A stretch of 64,000 bases of DNA from an uncultured Gemmatimonadales bacterium (lineage in GTDB: Bacteria > Gemmatimonadota > Gemmatimonadetes > Gemmatimonadales > GWC2-71-9): contig CAWBHB010000004.1 in the NCBI GenBank assembly GCA_963788625.1, positions 71,358-135,357 of the forward strand, read 5' to 3'. The position numbers and the translations under genes were made by a program. This document shows positions 4,016 to 63,223 of this stretch, one piece after another (position 1 is the stretch's first letter; each line of letters opens with the position of its first letter). The notes under the pieces are model-generated. The model was not told where the DNA came from. It searched no databases and was given only the letters and a program-made list of their open reading frames with translations.

Positions 4016-5168
4016 ATGACGCTTTCCCCTGCCCCCGTCGCGCCAGTCCGCGATCTCCCGCTGGGAGATTTCCGCACCGAGCGGGGCGACACGATTCGCA
4101 ACGCCAGGCTTCGCTATCGGACTTATGGCGATCCCGGAGTTGGGTGCCGAGCGAGGCTGGGCACTGGTGTTTCATGCGCTCACCGGGAGCCACGAGGTGC
4201 ACCAGTGGTGGGCGCCGCTCCTCGAACCGGGCAAACCGCTCGATCCTTCTCGCCGGCCCGATTCTCGCGGCCAATCTGCTGGGAGGCTGTTACGGATCGA
4301 GCGGGCCATCCCGGGAATCCGAGCGCGGATCATTTCCCCGACCTCACCAGCGGCGACCTGGCCCGGGCCCACGGCCCGCTGCTCGAAGAACTGGGCATCA
4401 CCCGGCTGGCACTAGCCACCGGTGGTTCGCTCGGCGGGATGGTCGCGCTCCAGTGGGCGAGGCTGGCAACGGTTCCCACCGAGTGTGTGGTGGTCTTCGC
4501 CGCACCCGCGAGGACTTCGGCCCAGGCCATCGGCTGGAATGCCGCACAGCGACTGGCCATCGAGGCCGATCCCCGCTGGCAGGGAGGCCATTACGCGCGC
4601 GGGCGAAGGCCCAGCGGCCGGACTCGCCGCGGCCCGGGCGATCGCGATGATCACCTACCGGAGCGCTATCGAGTTCGAGACGCGCTTCAGCCGCCGGGAA
4701 ACCCGCCGCCCTGGGCAGTTCGATGCCGAGTACTACCTGAGACGTCAGGGCGAAAAGCTGGTCGCGAGATTCGACGCCGCGAGCTACGTCAGCCTGATGC
4801 GCAGCATGGATCTCCACGACGTGGGAGATCTCAGTGTCGCTGCCCGGGAGACGGGACTCCGCGTCAACCGCATCATCGGGGTGGGAATCGACACCGACAT
4901 CCTCTACTACCCCGCCGAGGTGGAGCAGTGGGTCGCGGAATACGCGGCTGCTGGACTCGACGCCCGGTACCGGGAGCTCGCGTCACCCTACGGGCACGAC
5001 GCGTTCCTGATTGAGTGGGATGGGGTGGAGGGGGTGCTGAGGGAGGCGTTGGAGGGATTTGAGATTGAAGATTGTAAGATTGAAGATTGGCCTGCGGCTA
5101 CTGCGAGCTTTCCAATCTTCAATCTTACATCTTCAATCTTCAATGACACGGATCGTCAACTACGCTAA
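4016..5168 (+). CDS. metX: homoserine O-acetyltransferase (alpha/beta hydrolase), several frame breaks; the 3' end reads through a repeat hairpin
   Basis: [47 protein letters not shown] (Ser elbow), [35 protein letters not shown], spread over ORFs 3962..5014, 4125..4415 and 4422..5168. Homology ends near 5050; the true stop is uncertain. Confidence 0.85.
5061..5144. repeat. heptamer-armed hairpin (unit GATTGAA)
   Basis: Left arm gagattgaagattgtaagattgaagattgg (5061-5090), 21-nt loop, right arm ccaatcttcaatcttacatcttcaatcttcaat (5112-5144). Lies between convergent metX and the sigma-factor gene. Confidence 0.9.
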
Positions 5169-6029
5169 AAAGCTCTCCAGCGCTCTCGCCCGGCTTACGT
5201 GGCGCAGCCGGGTAAGGGCCTTCTCCTTGATCTGCCGGACCCGCTCGCGGGTGATCCCGAGCAGGCTGCCGATTTCTTCCAGCGTCATCGGCTCGGGGCC
5301 GTCGAGTCCGAAGTAGAGCCGCAGGATCTTGGCCTCCCGTTCCTTCAGCGTCCCCAGTACCTCCTCGATCGATTCGCTCAGGGCGTGCTCGAAGGTGTCG
5401 GCATCGGGGCCCGGGTTCTGAGTGTCGGGGAGATAATCGAGCAGCTTGTTGTCTTCGCCCGGAGTGAGCGGCGCGTCGAGCGACAGGTGATTCTGGGAGA
5501 TGGAGAGGGTCTTCTGTACCTCTTCCATCGAGATGTCCATGCCCTCGGCGATCTCGGACGGGGTGGGCTCGCGGCCCAGCTCCTGGAGCAGCGCGGACGA
5601 CCGCTTGCCGATCCGATGCAGGGTACCGGCCCGGTTGAGCGGAACCCGGACGATACGGCTCTGCTCCGCCAGGGCCTGAAGAATCGCCTGACGGATCCAC
5701 CAGACCGCGTAGGAGATGAACTTGATGCCCTTGGTCTCGTCGAACTTGTGGGCGGCGCGGATCAGGCCGAGGTTGCCTTCGTTGATGAGGTCGGCGAGGG
5801 AGACGCCCTGATTCTGGTATTTCTTGGCGACCGAGACCACGAAGCGGAGATTGCTGCGGACCAGCTTGTCGAGCGCCTCCTCGTCCCCGGTACGGATCCG
5901 CTGGGCCAGGGTGACCTCTTCCTCCTGCGGGATCAGCGGATACTTGCTGATCTCCCGGAGATACTGATCCAGCGAACCTTCATCGAATGAGTGGCCACGC
6001 TTGCCGGTGCCGACTCGCATTGGGCGCAT
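5160..6029 (-). CDS. RNA polymerase sigma-70 family factor (RpoD-like, regions 1.2-4, compact 289 aa)
   Basis: Uninterrupted ORF. DLINEGNLGLIRAAHKFD (region 2), YAVWWIRQAI, TLEEIGSLLGITRERVRQIKEKAL (region 4 HTH). Confidence 0.9.
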   Translation of the reverse strand: MRPMRVGTGKRGHSFDEGSLDQYLREISKYPLIPQEEEVTLAQRIRTGDEEALDKLVRSNLRFVVSVAKKYQNQGVSLADLINEGNLGLIRAAHKFDETKGIKFISYAVWWIRQAILQALAEQSRIVRVPLNRAGTLHRIGKRSSALLQELGREPTPSEIAEGMDISMEEVQKTLSISQNHLSLDAPLTPGEDNKLLDYLPDTQNPGPDADTFEHALSESIEEVLGTLKEREAKILRLYFGLDGPEPMTLEEIGSLLGITRERVRQIKEKALTRLRHVSRARALESFLA

Positions 6030-6119
6030 CAGACTCGACCTCGGGGCGGGCAGAGGGAGGAATGACTTGAGAACCTTAGCCCCGCTCTATCGGAGGCGCA
6101 AGCCGGGCAGAGCCGGATA

Positions 6120-7621
6120 TCACACTTCATAGTTATCGATCTGCGCGCGTTGCAGCGTACCGGAAAAATCCGCATAGCCGACTTTGGTCTCGGAGTAGAA
6201 TTCGAACACTTCCCAGCCTCCTTCGCGATGGCCATTGCCGGTCTGCTTGACGCCTCCGAACGGCAGGTGGGCCTCTGCTCCGATGGTCGGTGCGTTCACG
6301 TAGGTGATTCCGTTGTCCAGTTCCTGAAGCGCCCGGAATGCGCTGTTCACGTTGCGGGTGTAGATCGAGCTGGAAAGCCCGTACCGCACCCCGTTGTTGA
6401 CCCGGATCGCCTCTTCCAGAGAGCCGACCCGGATGACGGCCAGGACCGGGCCGAAAATTTCCTCCTGCTCCAGCCGGCTGCCTGGTTTTACCCCGGCGAA
6501 CACGGTCGGCTGGTAGAACCAACCACGATTCAGCCTGGCGCCCCGGGGCCGCGAGCCACCCAGCGACCAGCTCGGCGCCTTCGTCGAGACCCAGAGCGCG
6601 ACGTAGCGCTCGACTTTGTCCCGCGAAGCCTGGTGAATCAGCGGACCAACGTCGGTGCCCCGCTTCCGGCCGTCGCCCAGTCTCAGCGCTCCGGCGGCCG
6701 TGACGAGTTTCGCAACGAACCGGTCGTGAATCTTCCTGTGCAGGATGAGACGGCTCGTCGCGGTGCAGCGTTGTCCGGTCGTGCCGAAAGCGCCCCAGAG
6801 CACGCCCTCGAGCGCCAGGTCGAGGTCGGCGTCGTCCATCACGATCATCGCGTTCTTGCCGCCCATCTCGAGCGAGACTCGCTTGTGCATCCGTCCGCCG
6901 GCTTCGGCGATCGTCGAGCCGGTCGTGGTCGAGCCGGTGAAGGAGATGAGCGGAACGTCGGGATGCTCGACCAGCGCCCGACCCGCGACTTCGCCTCGTC
7001 CGTGCACCAACTGGATCACTTCGGGCGGGAATCCCGCCTCGAGTGCCAGCTCGACCAGGCGGTGTGCACTGTGAGGGACGTCTTCCGACGGCTTCAGCAC
7101 CACGCTGTTTCCGCACAGCAACGCGGGAAACATTTTCCAGGTGGGAATCGCCATCGGAAAATTGAATGGCGTGACCAGGCCCGCGACACCGATCGGCCGG
7201 CGATAGCTCATGGCCCACTTGCTGCGCAGCTCCGAGGGTACCGTGCGGCCGAACAGGCGACGCCCCTCACCGGCGGCGTAGTAGGCGGTGTCGATCCCTT
7301 CCTGCACGTCGCCCCGAGTCTCCGCCAGCACCTTGCCCATCTCCCGGGTCATGCCGGCGGCAAGCTCTTCCTTCTTCTCGACGAGCAGGTCGCCCAGCCC
7401 GACGGAGCAGGTCGCCCCTCGCTGGAGGCGGTACGGCCCTCCACGCCTCGAATCCACGACGGGCGGAACGGACCGCGGCGGTCGACGTCTTCCGGACCCG
7501 GAATCAGGGAACCGGCCGATGAGATCGCGAAGTGTCCGCCGGATTCCGGTTCTCGAACTACGCCCCGGAAAGCGGCGGCACCCATTTCCCGCCGATGAAG
7601 ATTCTTGAACGTGGTTGGCAT
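6120..7621 (-). CDS. NAD(P)-dependent aldehyde dehydrogenase, frame broken in the N-terminal ~80 codons
   Basis: VTPFNFP, FTGSTTTG, LEMGGKNA, GQRCTA (catalytic Cys), EEIFGPV in ORF 6120..7895. The N-terminus MPTTFKN is in ORF 7349..7621. Confidence 0.9.
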
Positions 7622-7630
7622 GCGGGAAGG

Positions 7631-10059: not shown

Positions 10060-10065
10060 GGTGGC

Positions 10066-11430: not shown

Positions 11431-11460
11431 GGCGGTAACGTACTAGGGTTGACGGGATGG

Positions 11461-11618
11461 GCGCCATAAGCCGTCAGCCTCAGCCGTCAGCCGTCGGTTA
11501 GCGGTTAGCTATAAGCCTTAGGCCGTAGGCCTTAAGCTTAAGTGCTTACGGCTTACGGCTTATGGCTCCGCGTTACGGCTTTTCGCTGATGGCTGACGGC
11601 TAATGGCTGACGGCTAAC
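11461..11618. repeat. complex heptamer array / nested palindrome filling the larE-like/arfB divergent intergenic region
   Basis: gccataagc (11463-71) pairs with gcttatggc (11561-69). ccgtcagcc copies on the left pair with ggctgacgg copies (11588-11618). Central 7-nt phased run ataagcc|ttaggcc|gtaggcc|ttaagct|taagtgc|ttacggc|ttacggc|ttatggc. Confidence 0.9.
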
Positions 11619-35026: not shown

Positions 35027-35040
35027 TTGTATTTTGCAGC

Positions 35041-37531: not shown

Positions 37532-37534
37532 ACT

Positions 37535-37642: not shown

Positions 37643-37711
37643 GTTCCTGCCGGTCTGTGCAATTCCTCGCCGCCCGGCGCATCCCCTCGCAACCCCTGAC
37701 CCGAGGACAAC

Positions 37712-38686
37712 ATGCGTTCCTGGATGGCAGCCGCATTCACCCTGACCGCGGTCGCGTGTCTGGCCCAGCGCGCCGCATTCGATGCGAAGAGCAAAGACGT
37801 AGCAGACGAGGTCCGCCGTGCCGAGTTGCAATCCAACGCGGCGCCAGTAGCGGCGGATGCACTGGCCGGAGGAAAGGTCGCCGAAGGAGACGTCGGGTAT
37901 GCCCAGCCGATCGCCCGCCCGTCCCTGCCGGGGGTGATGGTGATTCGGACCGGCCAGGCCAGCGTCGAGGTGGATTCATTGGAAAATTCAGTCGCTCAAT
38001 TACGGCAGCTCGCCGGACGGCTCGGCGGCTATCTCGCCAACAGTGCCTATCAGGCAGGGTCCGCCCAGTACCGCTCCGCGTCCATCGAACTCCGGGTGCC
38101 CTCGGAACGGTTCGACGAGCTGGTGAACGGAGTGTCACCGCTGGGAAAGGTGGAATACGTGAATGTGACCGCCCAGGACGTAGGCGAAGAGTACGCCGAC
38201 GTCGCGGCGCGCATCACTAATGGCAAGCGGCTCGAAGGCCGATTGATCGAGCTGTTGGCGAACCGCACGGGAAAGCTCCAGGATGTTCTCGAGGTGGAGC
38301 GGGAGCTGGCACGAGTGCGGGAAGAAATCGAGCGGTACGAGGGCCGGCTGCGGTACCTGGCGGCGCACGCCTCGATGAGCAGCCTGACCATCTCGCTGCA
38401 CGAGCCCCTGCCGATTCAGGGAGCATATCGCGGAAGCCCGGTTATCGCCGAAGCCTTCCAGCGGGCCTGGCGTAACTTCGTGAACCTGAACGCAGCGATC
38501 ATCTCTTCCCTGGGTGTGGTGCTGCCGCTCGGCCTGGTGGGAATGGCCGGGGTCCTCACGATTCGTCGCTGGTGGCGGAGACGGGGCTGTGGTCGTGGCC
38601 GGCTAGGTGTCGCAGGGGTCAGGTGTCAGGGATCAGGTGGACCGCTATCTCCCCTGACACCTGGCACCTCACACCTCTACGGCTGA
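37712..38686 (+). CDS. DUF4349-like lipoprotein/membrane protein; the 3' end reads through a repeat hairpin
   Basis: Uninterrupted ORF. MRSWMAAAFTLTAVACLAQ, coiled-coil region (RLEGRLIELLANRTGKLQDVLEVERELARVREEIERYEGRL), C-terminal TM helices. Residues after ~38590 are encoded by the hairpin. Confidence 0.65.
   Translation: MRSWMAAAFTLTAVACLAQRAAFDAKSKDVADEVRRAELQSNAAPVAADALAGGKVAEGDVGYAQPIARPSLPGVMVIRTGQASVEVDSLENSVAQLRQLAGRLGGYLANSAYQAGSAQYRSASIELRVPSERFDELVNGVSPLGKVEYVNVTAQDVGEEYADVAARITNGKRLEGRLIELLANRTGKLQDVLEVERELARVREEIERYEGRLRYLAAHASMSSLTISLHEPLPIQGAYRGSPVIAEAFQRAWRNFVNLNAAIISSLGVVLPLGLVGMAGVLTIRRWWRRRGCGRGRLGVAGVRCQGSGGPLSPLTPGTSHLYG
38604..38677. repeat. heptamer-armed hairpin (unit TCAGGTG/CAGGTGT), copy 1
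   Basis: aggtgtcgcaggggtcaggtgtcagggatcaggtgg (38605-40) pairs with cccctgacacctggcacctcacacctc (38651-77). Confidence 0.85.
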
Positions 38687-39256
38687 ACCTGACTGGCACT
38701 CTGTGCCACAAGGGAATCCATAGCCGCAAGGAAGACTTCCTCAAACTTGCCCTTGCTCTCGCAATCCACCCATGTCACTTGTCCCTCATCCATTTCCGAT
38801 TGAGCGGCCCGCACTCCCAATCGCAGTGCGACGCTGTCTGGAACAACTGGCCGCAATTGTATCCGCAAGCTCAACGAAGCCGTGTTCTGGACTTCTCCAG
38901 TGGTCAGGCTGATCTGGGCTCCAGCAGGAGCTGTGCGGGCAGGTCATGTAGTCCTTGGAACGCCACTTCTTCTGCGATTTTCCCGTCTTGTCCTGCTTAT
39001 TCCAACGCCCTTCAAAGTAGAGCGCGGTCGTTCTTTTCCAGGGAGAATCCGGCTTCAGCTTCACATCAAGCGATTGTGCAACCTGACGCACGGCTGCGGC
39101 TACGGTACCCGTATCGGCCTGATAGACTCTGGCAACCGGGTATTCCACCGGAGCAACGCCGCCCGGACCACAGCCAAGGCACAGCCCCAAGGCCATGGCA
39201 GCATGTTGCCAGAGGGCCCTCGACGAGCGTGGGAGTGAATCAGAATCGGGGGACAT
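38677..39256 (-). CDS. hypothetical lipoprotein, one frame break near 38875
   Basis: GGGAGG RBS; MSPDSDSLPRSSRALWQHAAMALGLCLGCGPGG (lipobox-like LGC). The C-terminal part is in ORF 38677..38874 (VALRLGVRAAQSEMDEGQVTWVDCESKGKFEEVFLAAMDSL). No family recognised. Confidence 0.55.
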
Positions 39257-39297
39257 TGGCCTCCCTTCCGTGCGGGCTGAGCTGGCAGGGGCCAGGC

Positions 39298-39370
39298 TTA
39301 AGGTGTCGGAGATCAGGTTGAAGAGTATCTTGGAATCCGTTTCCTGACACCTGACTCCTGACACCTGAAC
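39298..39370. repeat. heptamer-armed hairpin (unit TCAGGTG/CAGGTGT), copy 2
   Basis: aggtgtcggagatcaggt (39301-18) pairs with cctgacacctgactcctgacacct (39343-66). Same orientation as the 38604 copy, with arms ~80-85% identical to it. Confidence 0.85.
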
Positions 39371-39374
39371 CCTC

Positions 39375-40091
39375 ATGTCCGTCCACCTGCTTGCCATCGC
39401 CGCGCATCGGGACGACACCGAGCTCACCTGCGCCGGCACCCTCCTCAAGGCTGTGGATCAGGGGTATCGAACCGGGATCCTCGACCTCACCGCGGGCGAA
39501 AGTGGCACCCATGGCAGTGCATCACTGCGGGGCCAGGAAGCGGAACGGGCCGCCAAGATTCTGGGAGTGACGGAGCGTCGCAATGCCGGGCTGCCCGACG
39601 CGCATCTCGAAAACAGCGAGGAGGCACGCCGAATCGTCGTGGAACACATTCGGCACTTCGCTCCAAGGGTGGTGATTCTGCCCTTTCCCATCGGTCGCCA
39701 TCCGGACCACCGGATCGCGTCGGATCTGGGCCGAGATGCCTGCTTTCTCGCCGGCCTGGCCAAGTACGATGCTCCGGGCGACCCGCACCGCCCTCACAAG
39801 ATCCTGTACTCCCTCGCCTACCGTGAAGACCCGGTGAAACCGACGTTCGTGGTTGATATCTCGGCCCAGTTCGAACGGAAGCTGGCCGCGATCAAGTGCT
39901 ATTCCAGCCAGTTCGATGGGGCGAAGAATGCGGGCGAGATCTTCCCTACCGGTCAGGATCTCTATTCCCTCGTTGAGACCCAGAATGCCCATTACGGCTC
40001 CCTCATCCGTACTCGGTACGGGGAGCCTTTCTTTACTCAGGAGACGATGCGGGTGGATAACGTCGTGAGCCTGGAGGTCCAGAGCATGTAG
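39375..40091 (+). CDS. bshB1: PIG-L/LmbE-family deacetylase, bacillithiol biosynthesis BshB1-like
   Basis: Uninterrupted 238 aa. LLAIAAHRDDTELTCAGTLLK, ILDLTAGE.GT, HPDH, IKCYSSQF. Confidence 0.8.
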   Translation: MSVHLLAIAAHRDDTELTCAGTLLKAVDQGYRTGILDLTAGESGTHGSASLRGQEAERAAKILGVTERRNAGLPDAHLENSEEARRIVVEHIRHFAPRVVILPFPIGRHPDHRIASDLGRDACFLAGLAKYDAPGDPHRPHKILYSLAYREDPVKPTFVVDISAQFERKLAAIKCYSSQFDGAKNAGEIFPTGQDLYSLVETQNAHYGSLIRTRYGEPFFTQETMRVDNVVSLEVQSM

Positions 40092-40220
40092 GACGGGAGA
40101 AGGGAGACGGGAGACGGGCAGTGTCATTCCGAGGGAGCGAAGTGACCGAGGAATCCCAATGGCGATCTGGGCATCGGGATTCCTCGCTTTGCTCGGAATG
40201 ACACCTTCGCCGTCTCCCTG
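40091..40220. repeat. nested hairpin: GGGAGAC-type outer arms and GTCATTCCGAGG...GGAATCCC inner arms
   Basis: Outer ggacgggagaagggagacgggagacggg (40091-118) / cgccgtctccctg (40209-20). Inner gtcattccgagggagcgaagtgaccgaggaatccc (40123-57) / gggattcctcgctttgctcggaatgac (40176-202). Confidence 0.9.
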
Positions 40221-40272
40221 CGTTGGTCTGCCATCCTTTCTCCAACCCCACATCCGCCGCTATTTTCCCCGC

Positions 40273-45025: not shown

Positions 45026-47191
45026 GTGACCGACCTGCATCTGACGGCCCCGCTCGGCGAAGCCGACCCCCCCGGTGATCTCCGTCACCCTTCGCTGTTT
45101 CTCAACCGCGAATTGTCCTGGCTGGAGTTCAATCGCCGGGTATTGCATGAGGCCCAGGATGCCCGCACGCCGCTGCTGGAGCGGCTCAAGTTTCTGGGGA
45201 TTTTCAGCTCGAACCTGGACGAGTTCTTCCAGATCCGGGTCGCCGGGCTCAAGGAACAGCTGGCGGCCGGCTACAGCGAGCGTACTCCCGACGGCCTGAC
45301 CCCGGAGCAGCAGCTCAAGGCCATTCGCGGCGTGGTCAGGGAAATGCTGCGCGAGCACTCCAAGTGCCTGCACGATGAAGTGCTTCCCGGGCTGGCCCGG
45401 CAGGGCCTGGCGGTACTCAATATTGCCGACTTGGCAGTGGAGGAGCGTCGCGCCCTGGATCGGTATTTCCAGTCCAATGTCTTCCCGGTACTGACTCCGT
45501 TGGTGGTAGATCCTGCCCATCCTTTCCCCTACATCTCGAATCTGAGCCTGTCACTCGCGGTGATTCTGCGCGGACAGGACGGTGAAGAGCGCTTCGCCCG
45601 GGTGAAGGTACCCAAGATCCTGCCCCGCTGGGTCCCGCTGGACTCGCCCCAGCGCTATGTACCGCTCGAGCAACTGATCAGCGCGAACATCGAGGCGTTG
45701 TTCCCCGGAGTGGAGATCCTGGGTTGTTCTCCGTTCCGGATCACCCGGAATACCGACTTCGAAGTGGATCACGACGAGGCGGAAGACCTGCTCAGCACCA
45801 TCCAGGAGAACCTGCGGAACCGCCGGTTTGGCGCGGTGGTCCGGCTCGAGGTAGCACCGGATCTTCCCCACTCGGTGCGCGATGTGCTCCTCGCGGAATT
45901 CAACGACGACCAGGCGGCAGCCGATTCGCCGCTCTCCCGGGACGACGTGTACGAAGTCGCCGGCCTGCTGGACACCGCCGATCTGCTCTCTCTGGCCTCG
46001 GCCGACATCCCGGCTCTTCGGGATCCGGTGTTCCATCCGGTCACCCAGCCGCGCCTCGCCGCGGGCCGCAACATGTTCGAGGTGATCCGCGAGGGAGATC
46101 TGCTGGTCCACCATCCCTACGACAGCTTCGCCACCTCGGTCGAGCGTTTCATCCAGGCCGCGGTGGATGATCCCGACGTGGTGGCCATCAAGCTCACGCT
46201 CTACCGCACCGGCGGTGATTCCAACATCGCGCGGATGCTGTGCCAGGCGGCGGAACGCGGCAAGCAGGTGGCGGTGCTGATCGAGTTGCAGGCCCGGTTC
46301 GACGAGGAGAACAACATCAGCTGGGCCAAGCGGCTGGAAGACGTGGGAGTGCACGTGAGCTACGGCGTGGCGGGACTCAAGACCCACAGCAAGGTGATGC
46401 TGGTGGTGCGCCGTGAGGGCGACGGCATGCGGCGCTACGTTCATCTGGGAACCGGCAACTACCACCCGAAGACATCCCGCCTCTACACCGACTTCGGGCT
46501 GTTCTCCTGCAATCCCGAGCTGGGCGCCGACCTCACCGACTTGTTCAACGTGCTCACCGGCTTTGCTTCGCCCACTCAGTACCGGAAGCTGATCGTGGCG
46601 CCAAAGGGCATGCGGGACGGCTTCCTGATGATGATCCATCGGGAGATCCAGCATGCGAGGACCGGCGCGCCCGCCCGGATCCTCGCGAAGATGAATGCGC
46701 TCACCGACCCGGAAATCATCACCGCGCTGTACGAGGCGTCCCGCGCTGGCGTAGAGGTCGATCTGATCGTCCGCGGGATCTGTTGCCTCCGCCCGGGTAC
46801 CCCCGGCGTGAGCGACCGGATCCGGGTGATCAGTATCATCGGCCGCTTCCTCGAGCACTCGCGGGCCTTCTGGTTCCTGAACGGCGGCAGCGAGGAGGTC
46901 TACATCGGGTCGGCGGACTGGATGCCGCGTAACCTTGACCGGCGGATCGAGGCGGTGGTGCCGGTGGAGGACCCGGTGCATCGTGCGGCCCTGCGGGACC
47001 TGCTTTCACTCATGTGGGCAGACAACCGGCAGGCCTGGGTGCTCGGCTCCGATGGGACCTACAGTCAGCGGCGGCCGCCGGCCGGGGAAGACGAGCGCGG
47101 CACTCACCGGCTGCTCACCGATGCGTGCCGCGACGGGGGACGCTCTCCGACCGCGGAATTCTCCGCGGCTGCTCGCGCCTCTAGTACCTGA
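45026..47191 (+). CDS. ppk1: polyphosphate kinase 1
   Basis: Uninterrupted 721 aa. FLNRELSWLEFNRRVL, FSSNLDEFFQIRVAG, HSKVMLVVRRE, GSADWMPRNLDRRIE. Confidence 0.95.
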   Translation: MTDLHLTAPLGEADPPGDLRHPSLFLNRELSWLEFNRRVLHEAQDARTPLLERLKFLGIFSSNLDEFFQIRVAGLKEQLAAGYSERTPDGLTPEQQLKAIRGVVREMLREHSKCLHDEVLPGLARQGLAVLNIADLAVEERRALDRYFQSNVFPVLTPLVVDPAHPFPYISNLSLSLAVILRGQDGEERFARVKVPKILPRWVPLDSPQRYVPLEQLISANIEALFPGVEILGCSPFRITRNTDFEVDHDEAEDLLSTIQENLRNRRFGAVVRLEVAPDLPHSVRDVLLAEFNDDQAAADSPLSRDDVYEVAGLLDTADLLSLASADIPALRDPVFHPVTQPRLAAGRNMFEVIREGDLLVHHPYDSFATSVERFIQAAVDDPDVVAIKLTLYRTGGDSNIARMLCQAAERGKQVAVLIELQARFDEENNISWAKRLEDVGVHVSYGVAGLKTHSKVMLVVRREGDGMRRYVHLGTGNYHPKTSRLYTDFGLFSCNPELGADLTDLFNVLTGFASPTQYRKLIVAPKGMRDGFLMMIHREIQHARTGAPARILAKMNALTDPEIITALYEASRAGVEVDLIVRGICCLRPGTPGVSDRIRVISIIGRFLEHSRAFWFLNGGSEEVYIGSADWMPRNLDRRIEAVVPVEDPVHRAALRDLLSLMWADNRQAWVLGSDGTYSQRRPPAGEDERGTHRLLTDACRDGGRSPTAEFSAAARASST

Positions 47192-52210: not shown

Positions 52211-52283
52211 GATGGCCGTCAGCCGTCAGCCGTCAGCGAGAAGCTGTTCAGTACCGAAGGCTGAGGGCTGATGGCTAACGGCC
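52211..52283. repeat. heptamer-armed hairpin (unit GCCGTCA)
   Basis: gatggccgtcagccgtcagccgtcagc (52211-37) pairs with ggctgagggctgatggctaacggcc (52259-83). Same unit as the 11461 locus. The right arm overlaps the pgsA stop. Confidence 0.88.
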
Positions 52284-52917: not shown

Positions 52918-53028
52918 CCGAGTACCTGGTACCGAGTACCGGGTACCGAGTACTTCCAGCGAGATGACCTAGCAACAAGTGGGTGAGACGCCTGCCATCA
53001 CTGATACGCGGTACTCGGTACTCGGTAC
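52918..53028. repeat. heptamer-armed hairpin (units CCGAGTA / CCnGGTA)
   Basis: ccgagtacctggtaccgagtaccgggtaccgagtac (52918-53) pairs with gtactcggtactcggtac (53011-28). Confidence 0.88.
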
Positions 53029-53036
53029 TTTGACAG

Positions 53037-53715
53037 CTACGACCCCAGGGTTTTCAGAACGAGCTTGCTGACCGCCTTGAGCGTGTCGAACACGCCGTCG
53101 CCGTTCATCGCGACCGCTTCAAAGTAGGGCGCCCGCTCGATCCACTGTCCGTCCACCAGCTCCACCAGTTGCTCGCCCTCGTGGTAAGGATCCGGGAGCG
53201 GCGCGCTGTTTGGCCGCATCCTCGACCGGCCACCCCGGATTCAACGCCGCCTGCAGCTCACTGATGGTAGCCGCGTTCGGGAGATCTCGTTTGTTGTACT
53301 GCACCAGGAAGGGGATCGTCGTCAAATTATAGCCGTGCTGGGCCATGTTGTCGTACAGGTTCTGCATCGACTCGATGTTGGCTTCCATCCGCTCGATCTG
53401 GCTGTCGGCCACGAACACGACTCCGTCCACGCCCTTGAGGATCAGTTTCCGGGACGCATTGTAGTAGACCTGACCCGGGACGGTGTACAGGTGGAAGCGG
53501 GTCTTGAACCCACGGATGGTGCCGAGGTCCACCGGGAGGAAGTCGAAGAACAGGGTGCGTTCGGTCTCAGTCGCGAGGGAGATCAGCTTGCCGCGTGAAT
53601 TCGGCGAGACCTTGTTGTAGACGAACTCGAGATTCGTCGTCTTGCCGCCGAGGCCGGGCCCGTAATAGACCAGCTTGCAGTTGATCTCACGGGACGCGTA
53701 GTTGATCATCGACAT
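53037..53715 (-). CDS. mglA: MglA-type Ras-like small GTPase, one frame break near 53215 plus an internal insertion
   Basis: [58 protein letters not shown] (53119..53715). C-terminus [26 protein letters not shown] (53037..53219). Confidence 0.9.
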
Positions 53716-55488: not shown

Positions 55489-57200
55489 CTATTCGAGGGC
55501 CTCCAAATCTAAGCCCTCGGCAGCGGCTTCGAGGGTAGGGTCCTTGGTCCGCAGGATCCGAAGCCGTTCGGCCCGCGCCTGGCCCTCGGAGAGGCGCCGG
55601 ACGGGCCGTTCTGCCGGCTCCGGTTCGACTCCCATGCGGACCTGGACTGATGACCCGACCAGCTGACCGATCAGTCCCTCGACGGCCTTCAGCTGATGCT
55701 GCAGCCCTTCGGCGAGCGTCGGATTTCCTTCCGTGGACAACCAGACCACCGGTGGCGCCACTTCGGTGATGGTCGCCGCCGCCAACGCTTCGCTCAGGAA
55801 GCGGCTCTGCTGCCGGGCAGCGGCCATCAGGTGGGGCCAGGCGTCGGTGAGACCGGCCAGAGTGAACTCGGCGGACAGGGTAGATAGGGCAGGCGAGGCG
55901 GTCGGGGCGGACGAAGCGGTTGGGGCGGACGAGATCGAGGACCTGGTCCGGGGCACAGAAGGTACCTGGTTGCGCACGTCTCCTGGGGCACTCCGTCGAC
56001 CGCCCTGATCGCCCTGCCCGCCCCGTTCGCTTGTCCTCCCTGATCGCCCTGTCCGCCTTGTCCGCCCCGTATCACGGCCTCCAAGTCCACGGTCCGATCC
56101 ATCAGCGCCCAGCGGAGCAGCATCGTCTCCACCACGAGCCGGGGGGTCCCGCTGCGACGAATCGATGGTTCGCCCTCGGCGAACAGCTTGAGCATCCGCA
56201 GGAGATCTCCGGCCGGGAGCCGATCCCGCACCGCGGCCACGGCGTGACGCATTCCCTCGGTGATCCCCTCGGGATCGCCACCCAGCTGGGTGAGCAGGAC
56301 GGCCCGAAGCGCCTCGGCGGCGCCCGCGATGAATTCGATCAGGTCGGCGCCGCTGTCCACCAGGCGGTCGAGCAGAGGAAAGACCGCCGCGGGATTCCGC
56401 GCCGCGACCAGCTCGAGCAGTTCGGCGTAGGCCTCGTCGGTCACCAGGCCCAGGACCTCGCGCACCCGGGCGGCGCGTCACCACACCTTCCCCGAAACTC
56501 AGACACTGATCGAGCACCGAGAGCGCGTCGCGCATGCCGCCGTCGGCCTGGCGCGCGATCAGGGTCAGCGCATCCTCGTCGGCCTGGATCTGCTCGGCCG
56601 CGAGCACGGCGCGCAGCCGGTCACGGATCGCCGCGGTCCCGATCCGCCGGAAGTCGAACCGCTGCAACCGGGAGAGAACCGGCGCCGCCTGCTGCGCGAT
56701 TTTCTGGGGTTCGGTCGTGGCAAAGACGAAGACCACTCCCGGCGGCGGCTCCTCCAGAATCTTGAGCAGCGCGTTCCAGGCCTCCCGGGTGAGCATGTGG
56801 GCTTCGTCTACGATGTAGACCTTGTGGTGGTCCGGCGCGGGAGGCGGCGTACATCGCGCGCTCCCGGAGGTCCCGCGCGTCGTCCACGCCGCGGTTGCTG
56901 GCGGCGTCGATCTCCACCACGTCGAGATTGGCGTTCCCGTTCCAGATCCGGACGCAGCTCTCGCACTCGCCGCAGGGCTCGCCCTGGCCGGCTGGGCGTG
57001 CCCTTCCGCTCGCAGTTGAGCGCCATGGCCAGGATGCGCGCCGCGGTGGTCTTCCCCACCCCGCGGGGACCGGTCAGCAGGTAGCCGTGCCCCACCCGGT
57101 TCTTCACCACCGCGCCGCGCAGCACCTCGGCGACATGGTCCTGAACCAGCAGATCACTGAAACGTTTGGGGCGGTATTTGCGGGCGAGAGCCAAAGCCAT
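55489..57200 (-). CDS. dnaX: DNA polymerase III subunit gamma/tau, several frame breaks
   Basis: [23 protein letters not shown]...[19 protein letters not shown] (56808..57200); [18 protein letters not shown] (56621..56920); [35 protein letters not shown] (55489..56796); domain IV/V parts in 55827..56465. G/Q/D- and P/T/S-rich linker near 55880-56070. Confidence 0.9.
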
Positions 57201-57246
57201 GGGAGAAAACTAACGGGGTAGGAAAGGGGGCGTCAGGCGTGAAAAC

Positions 57247-57274
57247 GTGGGACGTGGGACGTGGGACGTGGGAC
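57247..57274. repeat. perfect tandem repeat (GTGGGAC)x4 with no inverted partner
   Basis: gtgggacgtgggacgtgggacgtgggac, between the dnaX start (57200) and the 3' end of the SRP RNA. Confidence 0.95.
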
Positions 57275-57293
57275 ATAGGAGGGGAAAGAAAAA

Positions 57294-57396
57294 TGCCCCA
57301 GGCACCCCGAAGCGACACCGGACATCGCTTAGCGCTGCTACCGGCGAGGTCCTGACGCGGTTCGCGCGCCAGCGCCCTTCGGACCTGGGGCGAGCC
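57294..57396 (-). ncRNA. ffs: signal recognition particle RNA (small bacterial 4.5S type)
   Basis: The minus-strand RNA GGCUCGCCCCAGGUCCGAAGG...CGCGUCAGGACCUCGCCGGUAGCAGCGCUAAGCG...CUUCGGGGUGCCUGGGGCA folds as one long hairpin (GCCCCAGG/CCUGGGGC, CCGAAG/CUUCGG). It carries the domain IV motifs GUCAGG ... AGCAGC and an AA bulge, is followed by a U-run, and sits directly upstream of dnaX as in many bacteria. Confidence 0.8.
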
Positions 57397-57409
57397 AAAT
57401 ATAACCGAA

Positions 57410-57655
57410 GGAGACGGGAGAAAGGAGATGGGAGACAGGAAAACGGATCGGGGAACGGGAGATGACGGGCTGACGAGCCGAATGACTGTCATTCCGAGGA
57501 AGCGAAGCGACCGAGGAATCCCAATGTTAGAGTGTCCGTCAATCGATTGGCGTTGGGATTCCTCGCTGCCGCTCGGAATGACAGCACCTCAACCCCTCTC
57601 CTTTCCCCTCCCTTTTCTTTCTCCGGTCTCCCTTCTCCTTTCTCCCGTCTCCCTC
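57410..57655. repeat. large nested hairpin: GGAGAnn heptamer outer arms and GTCATTCCGAGG...GGAATCCCA inner arms
   Basis: Outer ggagacgggagaaaggagatgggagacagg (57410-39) / cctctcctttcccctcccttttctttctccggtctcccttctcctttctcccgtctccctc (57595-655). Inner gtcattccgaggaagcgaagcgaccgaggaatcccaa (57488-524) / ttgggattcctcgctgccgctcggaatgac (57553-82). Confidence 0.9.
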
Positions 57656-57689
57656 TAACGTTCGGCCTGCCTTCCACGGAGCCATTTGC

Positions 57690-59488
57690 ATGCAGCTCAC
57701 AACGCTCGATTGGGCGATTGTCGCGGCATCCATCCTCATCTCCTTCCTGCCGGCGCTGTTCTTCTGGCGGCGGGCCAGCTCGAGCACCGGCGAGTTCTTC
57801 ACCTCGGGACGCGCGGCGCCGTGGTGGCTGGTCGGCATCTCGATGGTGGCGACCACCTTCAGCACCGACACGCCGAACCTCGTCACCAACCTGGTGCGCG
57901 AGCGCGGCGTGGCCGAGAACTGGCTGTGGTGGTCGTTCCTGCTGACCGGGCATGATGACGGTGTTCTTCTACGCCCGGCTCTGGCGGCGTTCCGGCGTGC
58001 TCACCGACCTCGAGTTCTACGAGATCCGCTATTCCGGCCCGGCCGCACGCCTGCTCCGCGGCTTCCGCGCGGTCTACCTCGGGCTGTTCTTCAACTGCGT
58101 CATCATGGCGACCGTGAATCTCGCCGCCGCCAAGATCGCCAACGTGCGTGCTGGGCTGGCCGATGGAGCGCACGCTGCTGGTCTGCTCCGTCATGACGAT
58201 CTTCTTCGCGTCGGTCTCGGGGCTGTGGGGCGTGCTGGTCACCGACTCGATCCAGTTCATGATCACGATGACCGGGACCTTCGCCGTCGCCTACTTCGCG
58301 CTGCAGCAGCCCGAGGTCGGCGGGCTGCAGCGGCCTGCTCGCCAAGGTCCCCCCGCAGTACGCTCGCATCTGCTGCCCGACTTCGGCGACTGGGGCACGG
58401 CGCTCACCGTGTTCATCATTCCGATCACGGTGCAGTGGTGGTCGGTGTGGTATCCCGGCGCCGAGCCGGGCGGCGGCAGCTACATCGCGCAGCGCATGCT
58501 CGCGTCGCAAGACCGAGAAGGACGCGGTGATCGGCACGCTGCTCTTCAACGTCATGCACTACGCGCTGCGCCCCTGGCCCTGGATCATCATGGCGCTCGT
58601 GCTCGACGCTGGTCTATCCCCAGCTCTCCGATATCGCCACGGCGTTCCCGTACGTGGATGCCGTCGCTGCATCGGGCACGACATCGCCTATCCGGCGATG
58701 ATGCGCTTCCTGCCCGCGGGATTTCTCGGCCTCGTCGTCGCCGGCACGCTCGCGGCGTATCGCTCGACGATCGAGACCCATCTCAACTGGGGCACGTCGT
58801 ACCTGGTGCACGATTTCTACCGCCGCTTCCTGCAGCCCGACGCGGAACGAGCGGCACTACGTGCTTCGTGGGCCGGCTCACGACCGCGGGACTGATGGTC
58901 GTGCGCCGCGCTGCATGACCTACGCGCTCGAGCACCGCGAAGGAGGCGTTCGATCTGATTCTGTCGATCGGCGCCGGCACCGGACTGCTCTACCTGCTGC
59001 GCTGGTTCTGGTGGCGGGTGAACGCCTGGAGCGAGATCGCGGCGATGGTCTCGACTTCGTCGTCGCGCTCGGTTTCCATCTGCTGGGCCGGACGGGCCAT
59101 CCGGTTCCCGGGCCCGTCATGCTGCTGCTCAGCGTTGCGATCACCACGATCGTCTGGGTCGCGACCACGTTTCTCGACCGAGCCAACCGACCGCGCGACC
59201 GGTTGCTCGAGCTTCTATCGCCTGGTCCGGCCCGCCGGTCCCGGATGGAACCAGATGCGCGCGGAAGCCGGCGTGACCGCCTCCCCCGACAGCCTGCCGC
59301 AGGCGCTGCTCGGCTGGGTGCTCGGAATCGCCTTCGTGTACTCCGCGCTGTTCGGTACCGGGAGTTTTCTCTACGGCCGAAGCACTCTCGGCTTGTTCTG
59401 GCTGGTGATTTTCGTGGTGAGCGGAATCGGTTTATTGCGAGTGGTGCCCCGGATGTGGCGACTGCCTCAGGGTTCCCAGAGCACCTGA
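57690..59488 (+). CDS. sodium:solute symporter (SSS) family transporter, heavily frame-broken
   Basis: MQLTTLDWAIVAASILISFLPALFFWRRASSSTGEFFTSGR...STDTPNLV (57690..), FYARLWRRSGVLTDLEFYEIRYSG (57952..), VTDSIQFMITMTGTF, PGAEPGGGSYIAQRMLAS (58148..), LLFNVMHYALRPWPWIIMAL, and fragments to 59488. Confidence 0.8.
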
Positions 59489-60351: not shown

Positions 60352-63066
60352 TCAGCGCTGCGGCCCCAGCAGGATCGCGTTGGTCAGCAACTTCGCCGTC
60401 CCGCGCCAGAATCCCCGATAGACCGGATTCTCGGCGAACAGGATCACGCGGCCGCTCGCCCTGATTCTCGACCGTGGCCCACACCGAGTTGCGGAGATAC
60501 TTCTCGGTGTTTTCCGGCCAGGTGAAGCCGGCGAGAGTGAGGTCCTTTCCGACGAACACGACCGGGATTGGCGCCCCGCTCCGAGGGCTTGAACAGCCGG
60601 CTCGACTCGATGAAGACCGGCAATTGGTCTCGCTCGTACCCGAAGGTGAGCCAGTGAGTGCGATCGAGCGTCGCGCGGAAGATCGCACCGGGAATGAACT
60701 CGGGCCGGGTTCCTCCAGGCGCGGACGGCGAGAACGAGCGGCGGAGCCGGCTTGGCGCTCTCACTGACGACGGTGTCGCGCACCGTCGTGTCTTTCGCGG
60801 CCTTGACCGCGTCGTGTCTTCCTCGCCGACAATCTTGAGTCCGCTCAGTTTGAGCTCCTTCCGCGCGAGCAGAGCCGGCAGCGTCCCCAATGGCGATGAC
60901 CGCCGCGCCCGACTCGACCCACGCCTTGAGCTTCTCGCCACCCTCGGTACCCAGCTCCTTCCACTGGTCGTCGTCATCACCCCCCGCGAGGATGAGGCAG
61001 TTGTAATCGGCCAGGTTGATCCGGCGCAGGCTGGACAGATTCACCGGCACCACCCGCATCCCTACCTCCCGCTCCAGATAGAACCAGACGGCGCCGAACG
61101 CGGTCTGATCGATGCCGTCCCCCGCAGCCAGCAGAACTCGGGGGCGATTCACCGCCTGGACGCTTTCGCTGCCGACGCCGGCGTCACCGCTATCGGGGAA
61201 CGCCGAGCTGACCGCGGCGACCGGCACGCCGAGCTCGCGGGCGAGCGCGCCGATCCGCTCGTGCAACGATGATGGGTTGCGCTGGATCCGAACGACGAAG
61301 GTGCCGCGCGGGTAGGTCTTGCCATCGGCCCTGAGCGGTTGAGTGGCCACCGCGACCCGGAAGCCTTCATCGAGCAGCCGGTAGGCGAGACTGGTCGCCG
61401 CCTGGGCCTCGTCGGCGAACACGTAGGCCGACTGAGCCCGCGGCGGTGCCGGCAATCGCGGGAAGCTGCGGCCTCGTGCGCCACCGTGTCGCCGACGACG
61501 GCCGGGGTGTCCTCGGTCCACCAGGCGTCGAGGCCCAGCGTGAGCGGAAGGGACCAGGCGGTGATGTCGTAGAAGTCGTACCCTCGCTGCCGGCCCGACG
61601 TCCGCGGACCTGGTTGCGGTCGTACTTGTCCAGCTCCTTCCGTACGAAAGCGGAATCGAACACCGCTTGGGCTCGAGGATGCTGGTAGCGAGCCGCGCCT
61701 CTGGCTGGGCCAGGTCCACCACGTAGCTGCCCGCAGGGAAGGTGCGCTGCGCGGCGGCTCCGCCCAGATACGAGTTGGCCTTGACCGCGGTGAACGGCTT
61801 CGTGGTCTGGGTGACCTGGATCTCCTCCCGAGCCAGGCGCCGGGCCAGCCAGCGAGCCCGCGGCGGGATCCGGCGATGCCGAGAACACGACGCGCTTCAT
61901 GGGCCGGTTGCGAGCGTCGGTCATGCCGGAGGACGTGGAACTGGTAGAAGTCCTGCAGCAGTTCGGCCCGACTCGCCGCCGCGGTCGCCAGGGTAGTCAG
62001 CGAGGCGATGTAGTGGTGAGCGATCGCCATTTCGAAGGTCATCCAGCTGCCGTCGTCCTTCCGCTTCTTGAGCTCAGGCCCACCGTCGGTCTCGAACGTC
62101 ATGCCGAGCCCGCCGCGCATCGTCGGCCACATGTCGATGTAGCCCGGGATAGAAGAAGTCGAAGACGTCGCGCACGTAGTATTGCCAGCCGTAGGCTGTC
62201 GAAGGCGCGACCGTTGTTGCGCCCGAAGCGCTCGAACCACTGATACGTGGTCGAGCGGCAGGTTCTGGTTGTGCGCCTCGGCCACCGGCGGGAAGAAGTA
62301 CTGCGACGTGGTGCTGTGCAGGTCGGCCATTACCTGGGGCCGCCAGCGGATGATACACGTCGCCCAGGGCCCGGCTCTCCGGCTGGGACTGGGCCAGCTG
62401 ATCCCGGTTCATGTCGAAGCGATAGTGGTTGTAGCGGCCCCAGATGGCCCACGGCTCGGTCTGCTCGACCGCCGCCGGGCTCGTCGGTGCCCACCGCCAC
62501 CGAGTTGTACCACGCCGCGAAGCGCTCGTGCCCGTCGGGGTTCTGCGACGGATTGAGCAGCACCACGCAGTTCTTGAGGATCTCCAGCGTCGCCGGCTCA
62601 TCGGAGGCGAGCAGCTGGTAGGCGGTCTGCATGACGGCCTCGAACCCCGCCGGTTCGTTGCCGTGGACCGAGTGGGTGAGCAGCACGGTGACCGGCGTGC
62701 GCTGGGCGATGGCCGGCGGCTTCCGGCGCCGTGGTCCGCCGGGGGTCCGCCAGCCGGGACAGGTCGGCCCGGATCTGATCCAGCCGCGCCAGGTTCTCGG
62801 GCGACGAAATGATCAGGAGCCGCATCACCTTCCCTTCGACGGAGCGGCCGATCACTTCGGTCCGGACTCGATCGGGTGCCGCCGCGATCATCCGGTCGAA
62901 GCACCTGCTGCTGCTGGTAGTACATCGTCTGCTGAGAACCGACGCGATATCCCAGGAGCGTCTCTGGACGCGGCACCGCGTTCCGATAGGGGCCGCGGGC
63001 GTAGAAGTCGAAATCCTGGGCGTGAAGAGTGGCGGGTACCAGGAGGGCAAGCAGCAGTAGACGCAT
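60352..63066 (-). CDS. secreted M14-family zinc carboxypeptidase-like protein with a C-terminal class-I-amidotransferase-like domain, heavily frame-broken
   Basis: Signal MRLLLLALLVPATLHAQ (62074..63066); HSVHGNEPAGFEAVM (HxxE zinc motif) and LLNPSQNPDGHERF (62330..62686); MTFETDGGPE (61149..62330); NCLILAGGDDDD... (60352..61722). Confidence 0.8.
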
Positions 63067-63223
63067 GAGGGAGTGCTAAGGAGTAGGGAGTAGGGATGGT
63101 AGTCGAGGTAGAGGTGTCAGGAAGTAGAATGTAGAATGCTCGGGAAGGTCGCTTGGAGTGGGGATCGGCGGCCATAGCTTCACGACCGCACCCTACTCCC
63201 CACAACCGACTCCCTACTCCCTC
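63067..63223. repeat. heptamer-armed hairpin (unit GGAGTAG), with internal GTAGAAT tandem
   Basis: gagggagtgctaaggagtagggagtagggatgg (63067-63100) pairs with ccctactccccacaaccgactccctactccctc (63191-223). The loop contains gtagaatgtagaatg. Confidence 0.85.

Follow-up and report, generated by a model that had tools for sequence, protein, structure and literature searches.

Why should a bacterial chromosome carry hairpins whose arms are tandem repeats of seven nucleotides, with different heptamers at different loci? The question is raised by a 64 kb stretch of DNA from an uncultured Gemmatimonadales soil bacterium (G+C 65%), referred to below as the window. A first-pass annotation, made from the sequence alone, had described twelve such intergenic loci as one dispersed family and had not recognised it as a described class of element. 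Here we report that the elements are real and that they are a lineage-specific, many-unit version of the heptamer repeats of Xanthomonas and cyanobacteria, not a new element class. As to their nature, we propose, and give the proposal about an even chance, that they are inverted pairs of fast-evolving heptanucleotide microsatellites, located in some Gemmatimonadales lineages between a stop codon and the start codon or promoter that follows.

Heptamer arrays and hairpins in the window

Tandem Repeats Finder detected period-7 arrays at all loci claimed earlier, most of them with a reverse-complement array a few tens of bases downstream, and the units that had been named proved correct at every locus. 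A strict scan, which looked for runs with identical bases at i and i+p, yielded nine period-7 arrays in the window, compared with 0.0 in 20 dinucleotide-preserving shuffles. The 7-nt phasing is thus far above chance expectation. The same scan found no arrays at periods 6 and 8-15. The longest inverted repeats of the window are mostly heptamer hairpins.

Folding of both strands with RNAfold gave very stable hairpins at 10 of the 12 loci (free energy, dG, -30 to -145 kcal/mol; z -4 to -13 against shuffles). These are 5061-5144, 11461-11618, 34887-35030, 37535-37642, 38604-38677, 39298-39370, 40091-40220, 52211-52283, 52918-53028 and 57410-57654. The dispersed family with its conserved architecture and 7-nt phase is therefore real, and the single architecture ascribed to twelve loci holds for these ten. 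Of the other two, 57245-57274 is a lone array, as its earlier description as a half element (57247-57274) had implied: it has no reverse-complement partner. The hairpin at 63067-63225 is weak.

At gathering thresholds, the signal recognition particle (SRP) RNA was the sole Rfam match in the window, and the hairpins are covered by no known RNA family. A tRNA scan of the window found none. Genes were called from third-position G+C content and codon log-odds; these calls are approximate here and were used for bulk statistics only, while the gene contexts in the window were confirmed by Pfam. The elements are as follows (ORF, open reading frame).

E1, 5056-5146: hairpin in which GATTGAA-type arms, each of about 4-5 units, enclose a loop of about 21 nt; dG -47.0 and -45.1, z -8.9 and -9.4; convergent, between a hydrolase-like ORF (end 5014) and a sigma-70 gene (end 5160)
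E2, 11457-11617: 159-nt hairpin with outer units GCCGTCA and inner GCCGTAA and GCCTTAA variants; dG -104.9, z -13.3; divergent, between an NAD-synthase-like gene (start 11430, minus strand) and an RF-1-domain gene (start 11619, plus strand)
E3, 34889-35027: nested hairpin, co-directional, plus strand; outer arms GGGAGAC/GGGAGAA at 34889-34910 and 35002-35027, inner arms GATTGAA-type at 34913-34946 and 34969-35001
E4, 37534-37643: hairpin with GTGAGAA arms of 4 units each; dG -74.8, z -13.6; co-directional, plus strand
E5, 38604-38681: hairpin with GGTGTCA/TCAGGTG-type arms; convergent, between a DUF4349 gene and a small minus-strand ORF
E6, 39295-39371: hairpin with the same unit family as E5; dG -29.9, z -4.4; divergent, between the small minus-strand ORF shared with E5 and a PIG-L gene (start 39375)
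E7, 40092-40219: co-directional, plus strand; 5' arm GGGAGAC/GGGAGAA of 3.9 units (40092-40118), a foreign inverted repeat nested at 40122-40203, and a 3' arm decayed to about 1.5 units (about 40206-40219)
E8, 52211-52283: GCCGTCA hairpin occupying the pgsA-to-cinA spacer; co-directional, minus strand
E9, 52918-53030: GTACCGA/CCGAGTA hairpin occupying the GTPase-to-pgsA spacer; co-directional, minus strand
E10, 57245-57274: lone array of GTGGGAC (4.3 perfect copies), placed between the SRP RNA and the start of dnaX and lacking a complementary partner array
SRP RNA gene, 57292-57391, minus strand: RF00169, 45.9 bits, E = 9.6e-07; between E10 and E11
E11, 57407-57655: 249-nt hairpin; dG -140.5 and -144.6; outer arms GGAGAnn-type at 57408-57462 and 57590-57654, nested inverted repeat at 57487-57583; context possibly divergent, the right-hand neighbour (ORF 57690-58196) being unconfirmed and without a Pfam match
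E12, 63067-63225: weak (z -2.0 and -5.0), with only the outer arms pairing (GGAGTAG, 2.4 units; CCCTACT, 4.6 units) around an interior of GTAGAAT (2 units) and a small GC hairpin; co-directional, minus strand, between a BrkB-family gene (stop 63231) and the next minus-strand ORF (start 63066)

The family in related Gemmatimonadales

The polyphosphate kinase encoded in the window (45026-47191) is 91-93% identical to proteins of uncultured Gemmatimonadales. We fetched 80 related loci, with about 22 kb per relative. A census set consisting of the window and 54 related Gemmatimonadales loci (1.10 Mb) contained 151 period-7 arrays of at least 2.8 copies. A reverse-complement partner no more than 350 nt away was found for 102 of the 151 arrays (68%), whereas control searches at equal score returned only eight partners for the complement alone, two for the reverse alone and four for a direct copy. 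The remaining 32% are lone arrays. In cyanobacterial loci subjected to the same scan, 5 of 32 arrays were paired.

Arrays of at least three copies numbered 146 at period 7, 33 at period 8 and 17 at period 5. With 33 period-8 arrays in 1.1 Mb, the preference for 7 nt is strong but not absolute. Intergenic arrays with 8-nt units are seen in some relatives, for example L036 (7201-7300) and L028 (about 6480-6520).

The units are diverse. The 151 arrays comprise 75 canonical units, and at least eight unit families occur in the 64-kb window alone. Units were counted as exact canonical sequences, as single-linkage clustering at one mismatch chained nearly all of them together. Certain units recur (GCCGTCA in 9 arrays, GGGAGAC in 8, GGGGAAC in 7, GTGAGAA in 6). 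A consensus, G-W-K-A-R-S-N, is weak (4.5 bits compared with 3.5-3.9 in shuffled units), and stop codons are not enriched in the 5'-arm units as read (21 observed, 19 expected). The 5' arm tends to be G-rich: G exceeds C in 72 arms, C exceeds G in 15, and 15 are neutral. The copy-number distribution has its peak at four units (63, 48, 65 and 28 cases with two, three, four and five units, respectively), while copy numbers at periods 6, 8 and 9 fall off steadily without a peak.

Array density differs sharply between clades. With the gene neighbourhood held constant, the clade of L002, L004, L005, L008 and L055 has 1 array in 105 kb, its sister clade 21 in 79 kb, and the clade of the window 36 in 104 kb. 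This spread of about 25-fold among clades with a common gene order hints at a trans-acting determinant.

Position relative to genes, promoters and terminators

The arrays of the census set merge into 60 hairpin elements, none of which lies inside a gene call (the calls being approximate). Measured from the element edge, the neighbouring stop codon lies at a median of 1 nt (interquartile range -3 to 6) and the neighbouring start codon at a median of 18 nt. There are 42 elements in co-directional, 6 in convergent and 1 in divergent context, compared with 680, 70 and 46 neighbouring gene pairs overall. The mixture of all three contexts reported for the window was confirmed.

In the window, E3 begins 2 nt past the stop codon of a MacB/FtsX permease gene (34885-34887), E4 begins 3-4 nt past the stop of a MacB-like permease gene (37531), and E7 begins at the PIG-L stop codon. 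The first triplet of E5, TAG (38604-38606), is the in-frame DUF4349 stop codon in L001 and L059, two relatives that are collinear with the window at about 84% nucleotide identity. On the gene strand, the 5' arm of E8 continues the final 7 nt of pgsA, which include the stop codon. E9 takes up the entire spacer, since the conserved C-terminus of the GTPase ends at the true stop codon, 53037-53039; the pgsA start is at 52910.

Downstream of several elements there is a promoter-like TAnnTTT box, positioned 4-5 nt ahead of start codons and of the SRP RNA 5' end (35030-35036, 40261-40267 and, on the minus strand, 57396-57403). E3 is followed by TATTTTG (35030-35036) and then by an ATG at 35041; downstream of E7 come TATTTTC (40261-40267) and, at 40273, the ATG of the aminotransferase gene; E11 adjoins the TATATTTG box (57396-57403, minus strand) ahead of the SRP RNA. 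The aminotransferase box is found in nearly every relative (about 45 genomes). In every case with such a box, the element is located after the stop codon and before the box. The boxes suggest Bacteroidetes-like -7 promoters and leaderless mRNAs in Gemmatimonadales, and the placement of the elements would fit a transcript end.

Canonical hairpin-plus-U terminator sites are at chance level (10 found, 10.4 expected in shuffles), and none of them is a heptamer element. This bears out the earlier statements that the elements are not simply terminators and that most lack a 3' U-tract: T-rich tails follow elements only where a TAnnTTT box comes next (34887, plus strand; 57410, minus strand). Nor is there a sense-strand bias in RNA stability, the sense strand being more stable in 11 elements and the antisense strand in 14, or in G-U wobble pairs (80 sense, 92 antisense). 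Given this absence of strand bias, RNA-level and DNA-level readings are not separable by the stability test.

Turnover between orthologous loci

The earlier view that sequence is not conserved does not hold in two respects. Orthologous loci retain their unit family at about 84-90% nucleotide identity, and units recur at unrelated loci and in other genomes (GCCGTCA and GGGAGAC, above). Copy number, loops and the sequence of whole arrays do change. In L001, the nested structure of E3 is retained with altered copy number, E7 is entirely absent, and the orthologue of the hairpin at 52211 pairs better after a shift by one unit, an instance of the register-shifted pairing that tandem arms had been predicted to allow. 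In L059, the E4 loop is 20 nt shorter, E7 has a full five-unit TCTCCCG 3' arm in contrast to the decayed arm in the window, and E8 has lost one arm. The E10 orthologue in L059 reads GGGAGAC in every unit, whereas that in the window reads GTGGGAC; this replacement of the unit throughout an array indicates concerted evolution. E6 is kept in both relatives, loop included.

A segment of about 610 bp with the small minus-strand ORF lies between E5 and E6 (38687-39297) in the window and in L059. In L001 the segment is missing and one hairpin is left. Either the segment was inserted beside a hairpin or it was deleted by recombination between two hairpins.

Three spacers were compared in about 45 genomes, and two of them also in 80 further metagenomic loci. 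The GTPase-to-pgsA spacer measures 5-15 nt in most lineages. It carries GTACCGA hairpins in the window, L001 and L006, GGACTGA hairpins in L098, L081 and L092, and CGTTCCG hairpins in eight other genomes. In L059 it is empty (E9 is absent), although the pgsA gene is 96.5% identical to that of L098. A different content is seen in L009, L088, L090 and L104, where the spacer holds a conserved GC-rich insert of about 117 nt without heptamers, which may contain a short ORF (it includes ATG..GGAGCTGGTATGACC).

Arrays are present in the pgsA-to-cinA spacer of 7 out of about 45 genomes and 20 out of 74 metagenomic loci. Here the 5' array is repeatedly in phase with the last seven bases of pgsA, including the stop codon (L006, L094, L142 and others); in L006, for example, the gene end and array read GG-CCATTAG-CCATTAG-CCTTTAG. 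In L003, the pgsA end CCATTAG is present and the array is absent. In-phase arrays that continue the gene end, together with the presence of CCATTAG in the array-less L003, show local seeding.

The spacer after the polyphosphate kinase gene (ppk) contains a conserved small hairpin, CGACCCTCC..GGAGGGTCG, which stands alone in L004, L005, L008 and L055. This core is flanked by GCCGTCA arms in L007 and by ten perfect GCCGTTA units in L012.

The two arms of an element behave as separate microsatellites and yet covary. Their copy numbers are hardly correlated (r = 0.16) and differ by at least two units in 9 of 41 elements. In L094, one arm has 3.4 copies and the other 13.6, and perfect arrays of 10 and 13.6 copies face short degenerate arms. 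In E3, the inner right arm is a perfect 14-nt higher-order repeat, which its partner is not. Unit identity is 0.848 within and 0.825 between arms (P = 0.08). On the other hand, changes are mirrored between arms. A variant unit (GTAA) occupies mirrored positions in both arms of E1, and in the L059 orthologue of E4 one arm carries A>G and the opposite arm the corresponding T>C. The units of E9 are TACCGAG in the window and L001 and GACTGAG in L098, L081 and L092: both variable unit positions have changed in both arms and in all units, a two-sided change in 4 of 16 predicted pairs. Two alleles of E8 (TCAG-CTGAC and TAAG-CTTAC) differ by two-sided change in 2 of 17 pairs. The E8 allele of L098 is that of the more distant L001, which implies that recombination between lineages also moves alleles.

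These data bear on the speculation that the hairpins originate in templated repeat addition with subsequent fold-back synthesis. Such an origin in one single event is not supported: arm copy numbers are weakly correlated, one arm can be perfectly homogenised by itself (3.4 and 13.6 copies), and first 5' units are traceable to the last 7 nt of the upstream gene. A weaker form survives, as the mirrored unit changes fit copying between arms.

Tandem 7-nt copies above chance, polymorphism of copy number and unit, and confinement to non-coding DNA identify the elements as heptanucleotide microsatellites.

A nested inverted repeat

E7 and E11 share an inverted repeat that is unrelated to the heptamers and nested inside the heptamer arms. 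This double inverted repeat of about 80-100 nt (40122-40203, 57487-57583) has the form TGTCATTCCGAGGrAGCGAAGyGACCGAGGAATCCCAA ... GGGATTCCTCGCT..GCTCGGAATGACA. It lies inside GGGAGAC heptamer arms at two unrelated loci and is kept at the orthologous site of L059 (5104-5185); variants (TGTCATCCCGAGC) are present in L017, L028, L044 and L052. The repeat resembles a small mobile element, either inserting into heptamer hairpins or moving along with them.

Comparison with known repeats

Cyanobacteria were the first source of reported heptanucleotide repeats, which were then found over-represented in many bacterial genomes. A literature search gave no paper linking Gemmatimonadota with heptamer repeats. 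Over-represented heptamers are nevertheless documented in Xanthomonas, Geobacter metallireducens and Beggiatoaceae (PMC4692102, PMC2700814, PMC4679880), and the view that the architecture belongs to no described class is not supported.

The closest precedent comes from Xanthomonas, with its convergent pairs of GGGAATC repeats. In Xanthomonas campestris and X. axonopodis, about 185 patterns of GGGAATC heptamers, overwhelmingly intergenic, have been described (Rehm et al., 2015; PMC4692102), with 70-75 cases of two convergent arrays in close proximity (PMC4692102). The arrays lie 28 nt from the end of the upstream gene, much nearer than to the next gene (PMC4692102). Four units are commonest, few arrays have a divergent context, close species differ in array length and sequence, and no function was found (PMC4692102). 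The Gemmatimonadales elements likewise consist of a G-rich array followed by its reverse complement (102 of 151 paired; G>C in 72 against 15), lie nearer the upstream gene end (median 1 nt from the stop, 18 nt from the start) and have a four-unit mode. They differ in that Xanthomonas has essentially one unit, GGG(A)NTC, read via a G-quadruplex, whereas here there are 75 units, most without a G-tract; those in the window include GATTGAA, GCCGTCA, GTGAGAA, CCGAGTA and TCAGGTG. Because hairpins dominate even for units unable to form G-quadruplexes, the four-unit preference cannot be explained here by a quadruplex. Nesting of arms around other hairpins, documented seeding from gene ends, covariation of arms and presence or absence at clade level are further differences from Xanthomonas.

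The short tandemly repeated repetitive (STRR) heptanucleotides of Calothrix, Anabaena and Nostoc (as cited in PMC4692102) and the TAACTGA repeats of Beggiatoaceae and Microcystis (PMC4679880) resemble the present elements as over-represented intergenic tandem heptamers with several units per genome and variable copy number. They are, however, mostly direct arrays: 5 of 32 were paired in cyanobacterial loci compared with 102 of 151 in Gemmatimonadales, and in a Beggiatoaceae genome 169 sets are direct and only one is inverted, most of them lying immediately upstream of start codons (PMC4679880). Geobacter metallireducens contains the heptamer families GGACCGG x4 and MTYCTGA x5, for which a regulatory role was proposed (PMC2700814). 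These too are four or five tandem heptamers at dozens of sites, but they are fixed-sequence families found by BLAST, with some copies within genes, and hairpin arms were not described as the rule.

Repetitive extragenic palindromic (REP) sequences, bacterial interspersed mosaic elements (BIME) and REPIN, which are REP sequences paired as hairpins, are mobilised by REP-associated tyrosine transposases (RAYT; PMC3116915, PMC2817692). They share with the heptamer hairpins the abundance of extragenic palindromes at gene ends, some as inverted pairs, and REPs can stabilise upstream mRNA. Unlike the locus-specific microsatellite arms found here, REPs are conserved in sequence and head, come with a RAYT gene and have arms that are not tandem. 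Intrinsic terminators are similar in being stable stem-loops located directly after a stop codon and ahead of the next promoter. The heptamer elements differ from them by the lack of a U-tract, stems of 25-60 instead of 5-14 pairs, repeat arms and some divergent contexts, and any termination by them is putative; hairpin terminators without a U-tract have been proposed for GC-rich bacteria (PMC8355165). Finally, template switching at quasipalindromes (PMC7202029, PMC8604942) copies arm to arm and gives compensatory-looking changes such as those at E8 and E9. It is a mutational mechanism and defines no element family, and it may have acted here.

Several identities were tried and rejected. A miniature inverted-repeat transposable element (MITE) does not agree with filled and empty E9 sites that lack duplication or clean boundaries, or with arrays that continue the gene end. 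A REP/BIME/REPIN sequence family is rejected since elements of the same unit have only the 7-mer in common, their loops and flanks being unrelated; the contrast with a single REP or MITE sequence family drawn in the first-pass annotation was thus well founded. Rho-independent terminators with a short GC stem and U-tract have consensus sites at chance level, none of them an element. Integron attC sites are excluded by flanking housekeeping genes that keep the same order across the whole order Gemmatimonadales and by arms that are tandem repeats; no integrase domain was found among the ORFs searched. A reading as CRISPR repeats was considered and rejected.

Proposed origin as inverted microsatellites

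How might such elements arise and persist? The orthologous series display slippage-like dynamics, local seeding, growth around existing hairpins, independence of the arms and covariation between them. According to the microsatellite model, a 7-nt seed would be tandemly duplicated through replication slippage. The seed would be the upstream gene end, often including the stop codon, or the flank of an existing small hairpin. Each arm would then grow, shrink and homogenise as its own microsatellite, with blocks of 14 and 21 nt being duplicated as well, and such turnover would leave each locus with its own unit. Slippage probably drives both growth and homogenisation.

Complementarity of the arms could be reached by three routes. 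The arms may descend from the two sides of one helix; intrastrand template switching may copy one arm onto the other, as in quasipalindromes; or pairing may be selected. Template switching is known to homogenise inverted-repeat arms and to correct imperfect palindromes (PMC7202029, PMC8604942). Between the arms of the present elements, it would account for the mirrored multi-nucleotide changes.

When transcribed, an element would form a stem-loop of 20-60 bp right after the upstream cistron. Such a stem-loop without U-tract may serve as a generic transcript-end structure, that is, as a terminator, exonuclease barrier or insulator. A barrier or terminator function at 3' ends seems plausible but dispensable, and is less certain than the origin; the patchy presence of the elements indicates that each copy can be dispensed with. 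One idea for the order of the arms is that a G-rich arm in front may keep a C-rich single strand from exposure to Rho.

A number of observations weigh against this account. RNA-level selection is not indicated by stability (sense 11, antisense 14) or by G-U pairs (80 and 92). The gene contexts of the elements equal the background (42/6/1 against 680/70/46), and the terminator-like placement could merely mark sites that tolerate spare DNA. Even genomes 95-96% identical in pgsA show a patchy presence of elements, which argues against an important function. Plain slippage leaves the 7-nt unit, the four-unit mode, the G-rich 5' arm and the recurrence of units at unrelated loci unexplained. Lastly, array density differs about 25-fold between clades with a common gene order, and the model names no trans-acting determinant.

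Alternative explanations

Among the alternatives, selection for RNA structure survives best, but we regard it as unlikely. It holds that the elements are bidirectional terminators or mRNA 3'-end stabilisers without a U-tract, for which heptamers are the cheapest route to a longer stem. That elements adjoin stop codons and precede the promoter-like box of the next gene would be expected, as would the compensatory covariation between arms; canonical terminators occur at chance level only, and in the ppk series heptamer arms were added around a conserved terminator-like core hairpin. Against it stand the absence of a bias towards the sense strand or G-U pairs, the divergent contexts (E2, E6), the 32% of arrays that are partnerless, and the surplus units of very unequal arms (3.4 against 13.6), which lengthen no stem. 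Elements are patchy between near-identical genomes, and whole clades manage without them.

Somewhat more doubtful is a dedicated trans-acting system that makes or uses the repeats, with heptamer phase, four-unit length and polarity as its functional or mechanistic signatures. It could be a protein, for instance of the OB-fold or cold-shock-like kind, reading single-stranded nucleic acid seven nucleotides at a time, or a polymerase or repair activity with a 7-nt footprint. The switching of density between sister clades (1 array per 105 kb in one, 21 per 79 kb and 36 per 104 kb in others) speaks for such a system, but is equally explicable as a past burst followed by decay. The non-monotonic copy-number distribution, peaking at four units, is in its favour, the more so as four units are also favoured in Xanthomonas and Geobacter (PMC4692102, PMC2700814) and here with units lacking G-tracts; so are the G-rich 5' arm (72 arms against 15) and the heptamer preference in several phyla. 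The common unit pattern G-W-K-A-R-S-N (4.5 bits against 3.5-3.9) points the same way but is weak. Period-8 arrays also occur (33), and no candidate gene emerged from the roughly 22 kb per relative. As the 7-nt unit, four-unit mode, G-rich arm and clade-level switching are unexplained, a trans-acting factor stays in play. The general form of the idea, that bacterial heptamer repeats are made or maintained by a specific heritable trans-acting activity working in 7-nt steps and favouring about four units, is a shade more speculative again.

Less likely than a trans-acting factor, and also improbable, is an origin as mobile hairpins of REP/REPIN or MITE type, placed at gene ends by a transposase that recognises structure, with the units as sub-families. 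Identical units do occur at non-orthologous loci and in different genomes, one spacer carries different unit families by lineage, and close relatives differ in presence and absence (E9 absent from L059, E7 from L001). The nested elements E3, E7 and E11 and the 610-bp insert bordered by the same-family hairpins E5 and E6 could be understood in the same way. Yet elements of the same unit have unrelated loops and flanks, filled and empty sites show neither target-site duplication nor clean boundaries, and 5' arrays come from the local gene end, whose phase they keep. Arm lengths vary freely, and an alignment of the E9 alleles GTACCGA and GGACTGA matches them one unit to one unit, as for homologues. 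At least eight unit families per 64 kb would demand many transposases or one without sequence specificity. No transposase domain was found among the 37 window ORFs searched, which are part of the ORFs in the 64 kb.

Very improbable is a role as non-B DNA (cruciforms, G-quadruplexes or i-motifs) acting on supercoiling, replication or transcription. The missing strand bias fits a structure at the DNA level, and four-copy GGGAGAC and GGGGAAC could form G-quadruplexes, as GGGAATC does in vitro (PMC4692102), but many units have no G-tracts (GATTGAA, GTACCGA, GCCGTCA) and loops of 20-170 nt disfavour cruciform extrusion. Assembly or sequencing artefacts, which the apparent frameshifts in conserved genes and a possibly error-prone long-read assembly of the window might suggest, are effectively excluded because equivalent elements with graded differences recur at orthologous sites of numerous genomes and metagenomes that different projects assembled independently.

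Implications for heptamer repeats

The origin of heptamer repeats, their 7-nt unit and their function have been stated as open questions (PMC4692102). The main worth of the Gemmatimonadales elements is that they make the question of origin testable, with an unusually clear evolutionary series. Many unit families stand side by side, mostly as hairpins; their birth from gene ends or around older hairpins can be traced, and changes of unit are mirrored in the arms. Sister clades with and without repeats have a common gene order, which renders a trans-acting cause testable by comparative genomics. If a trans-acting 7-nt activity exists, the array-rich and array-poor clades are a natural experiment for identifying it, and it would explain heptamers in cyanobacteria (STRR), Xanthomonas, Geobacter and Beggiatoaceae. 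The hairpins are also putative marks of transcript boundaries in a phylum with almost no transcript-level annotation, and in metagenome-assembled genomes they are likely to be hotspots for assembly error as well as for deletion and recombination.

Other features of the window

Some conserved genes of the window appear split or frameshifted. This concerns the genes for the MacB/FtsX permease (33647-34887), DnaX (55489-57200), an Arf-like GTPase (53037-53715) and the DUF4349 protein (38560-38686), the last with one extra base ahead of its stop codon. The apparent frameshifts are either indel errors of a long-read assembly or pseudogenes. Within the dnaX region, positions 55870-56069 contain tandem repeats of periods 9, 18 and 26 and an imperfect inverted repeat of about 25 nt.

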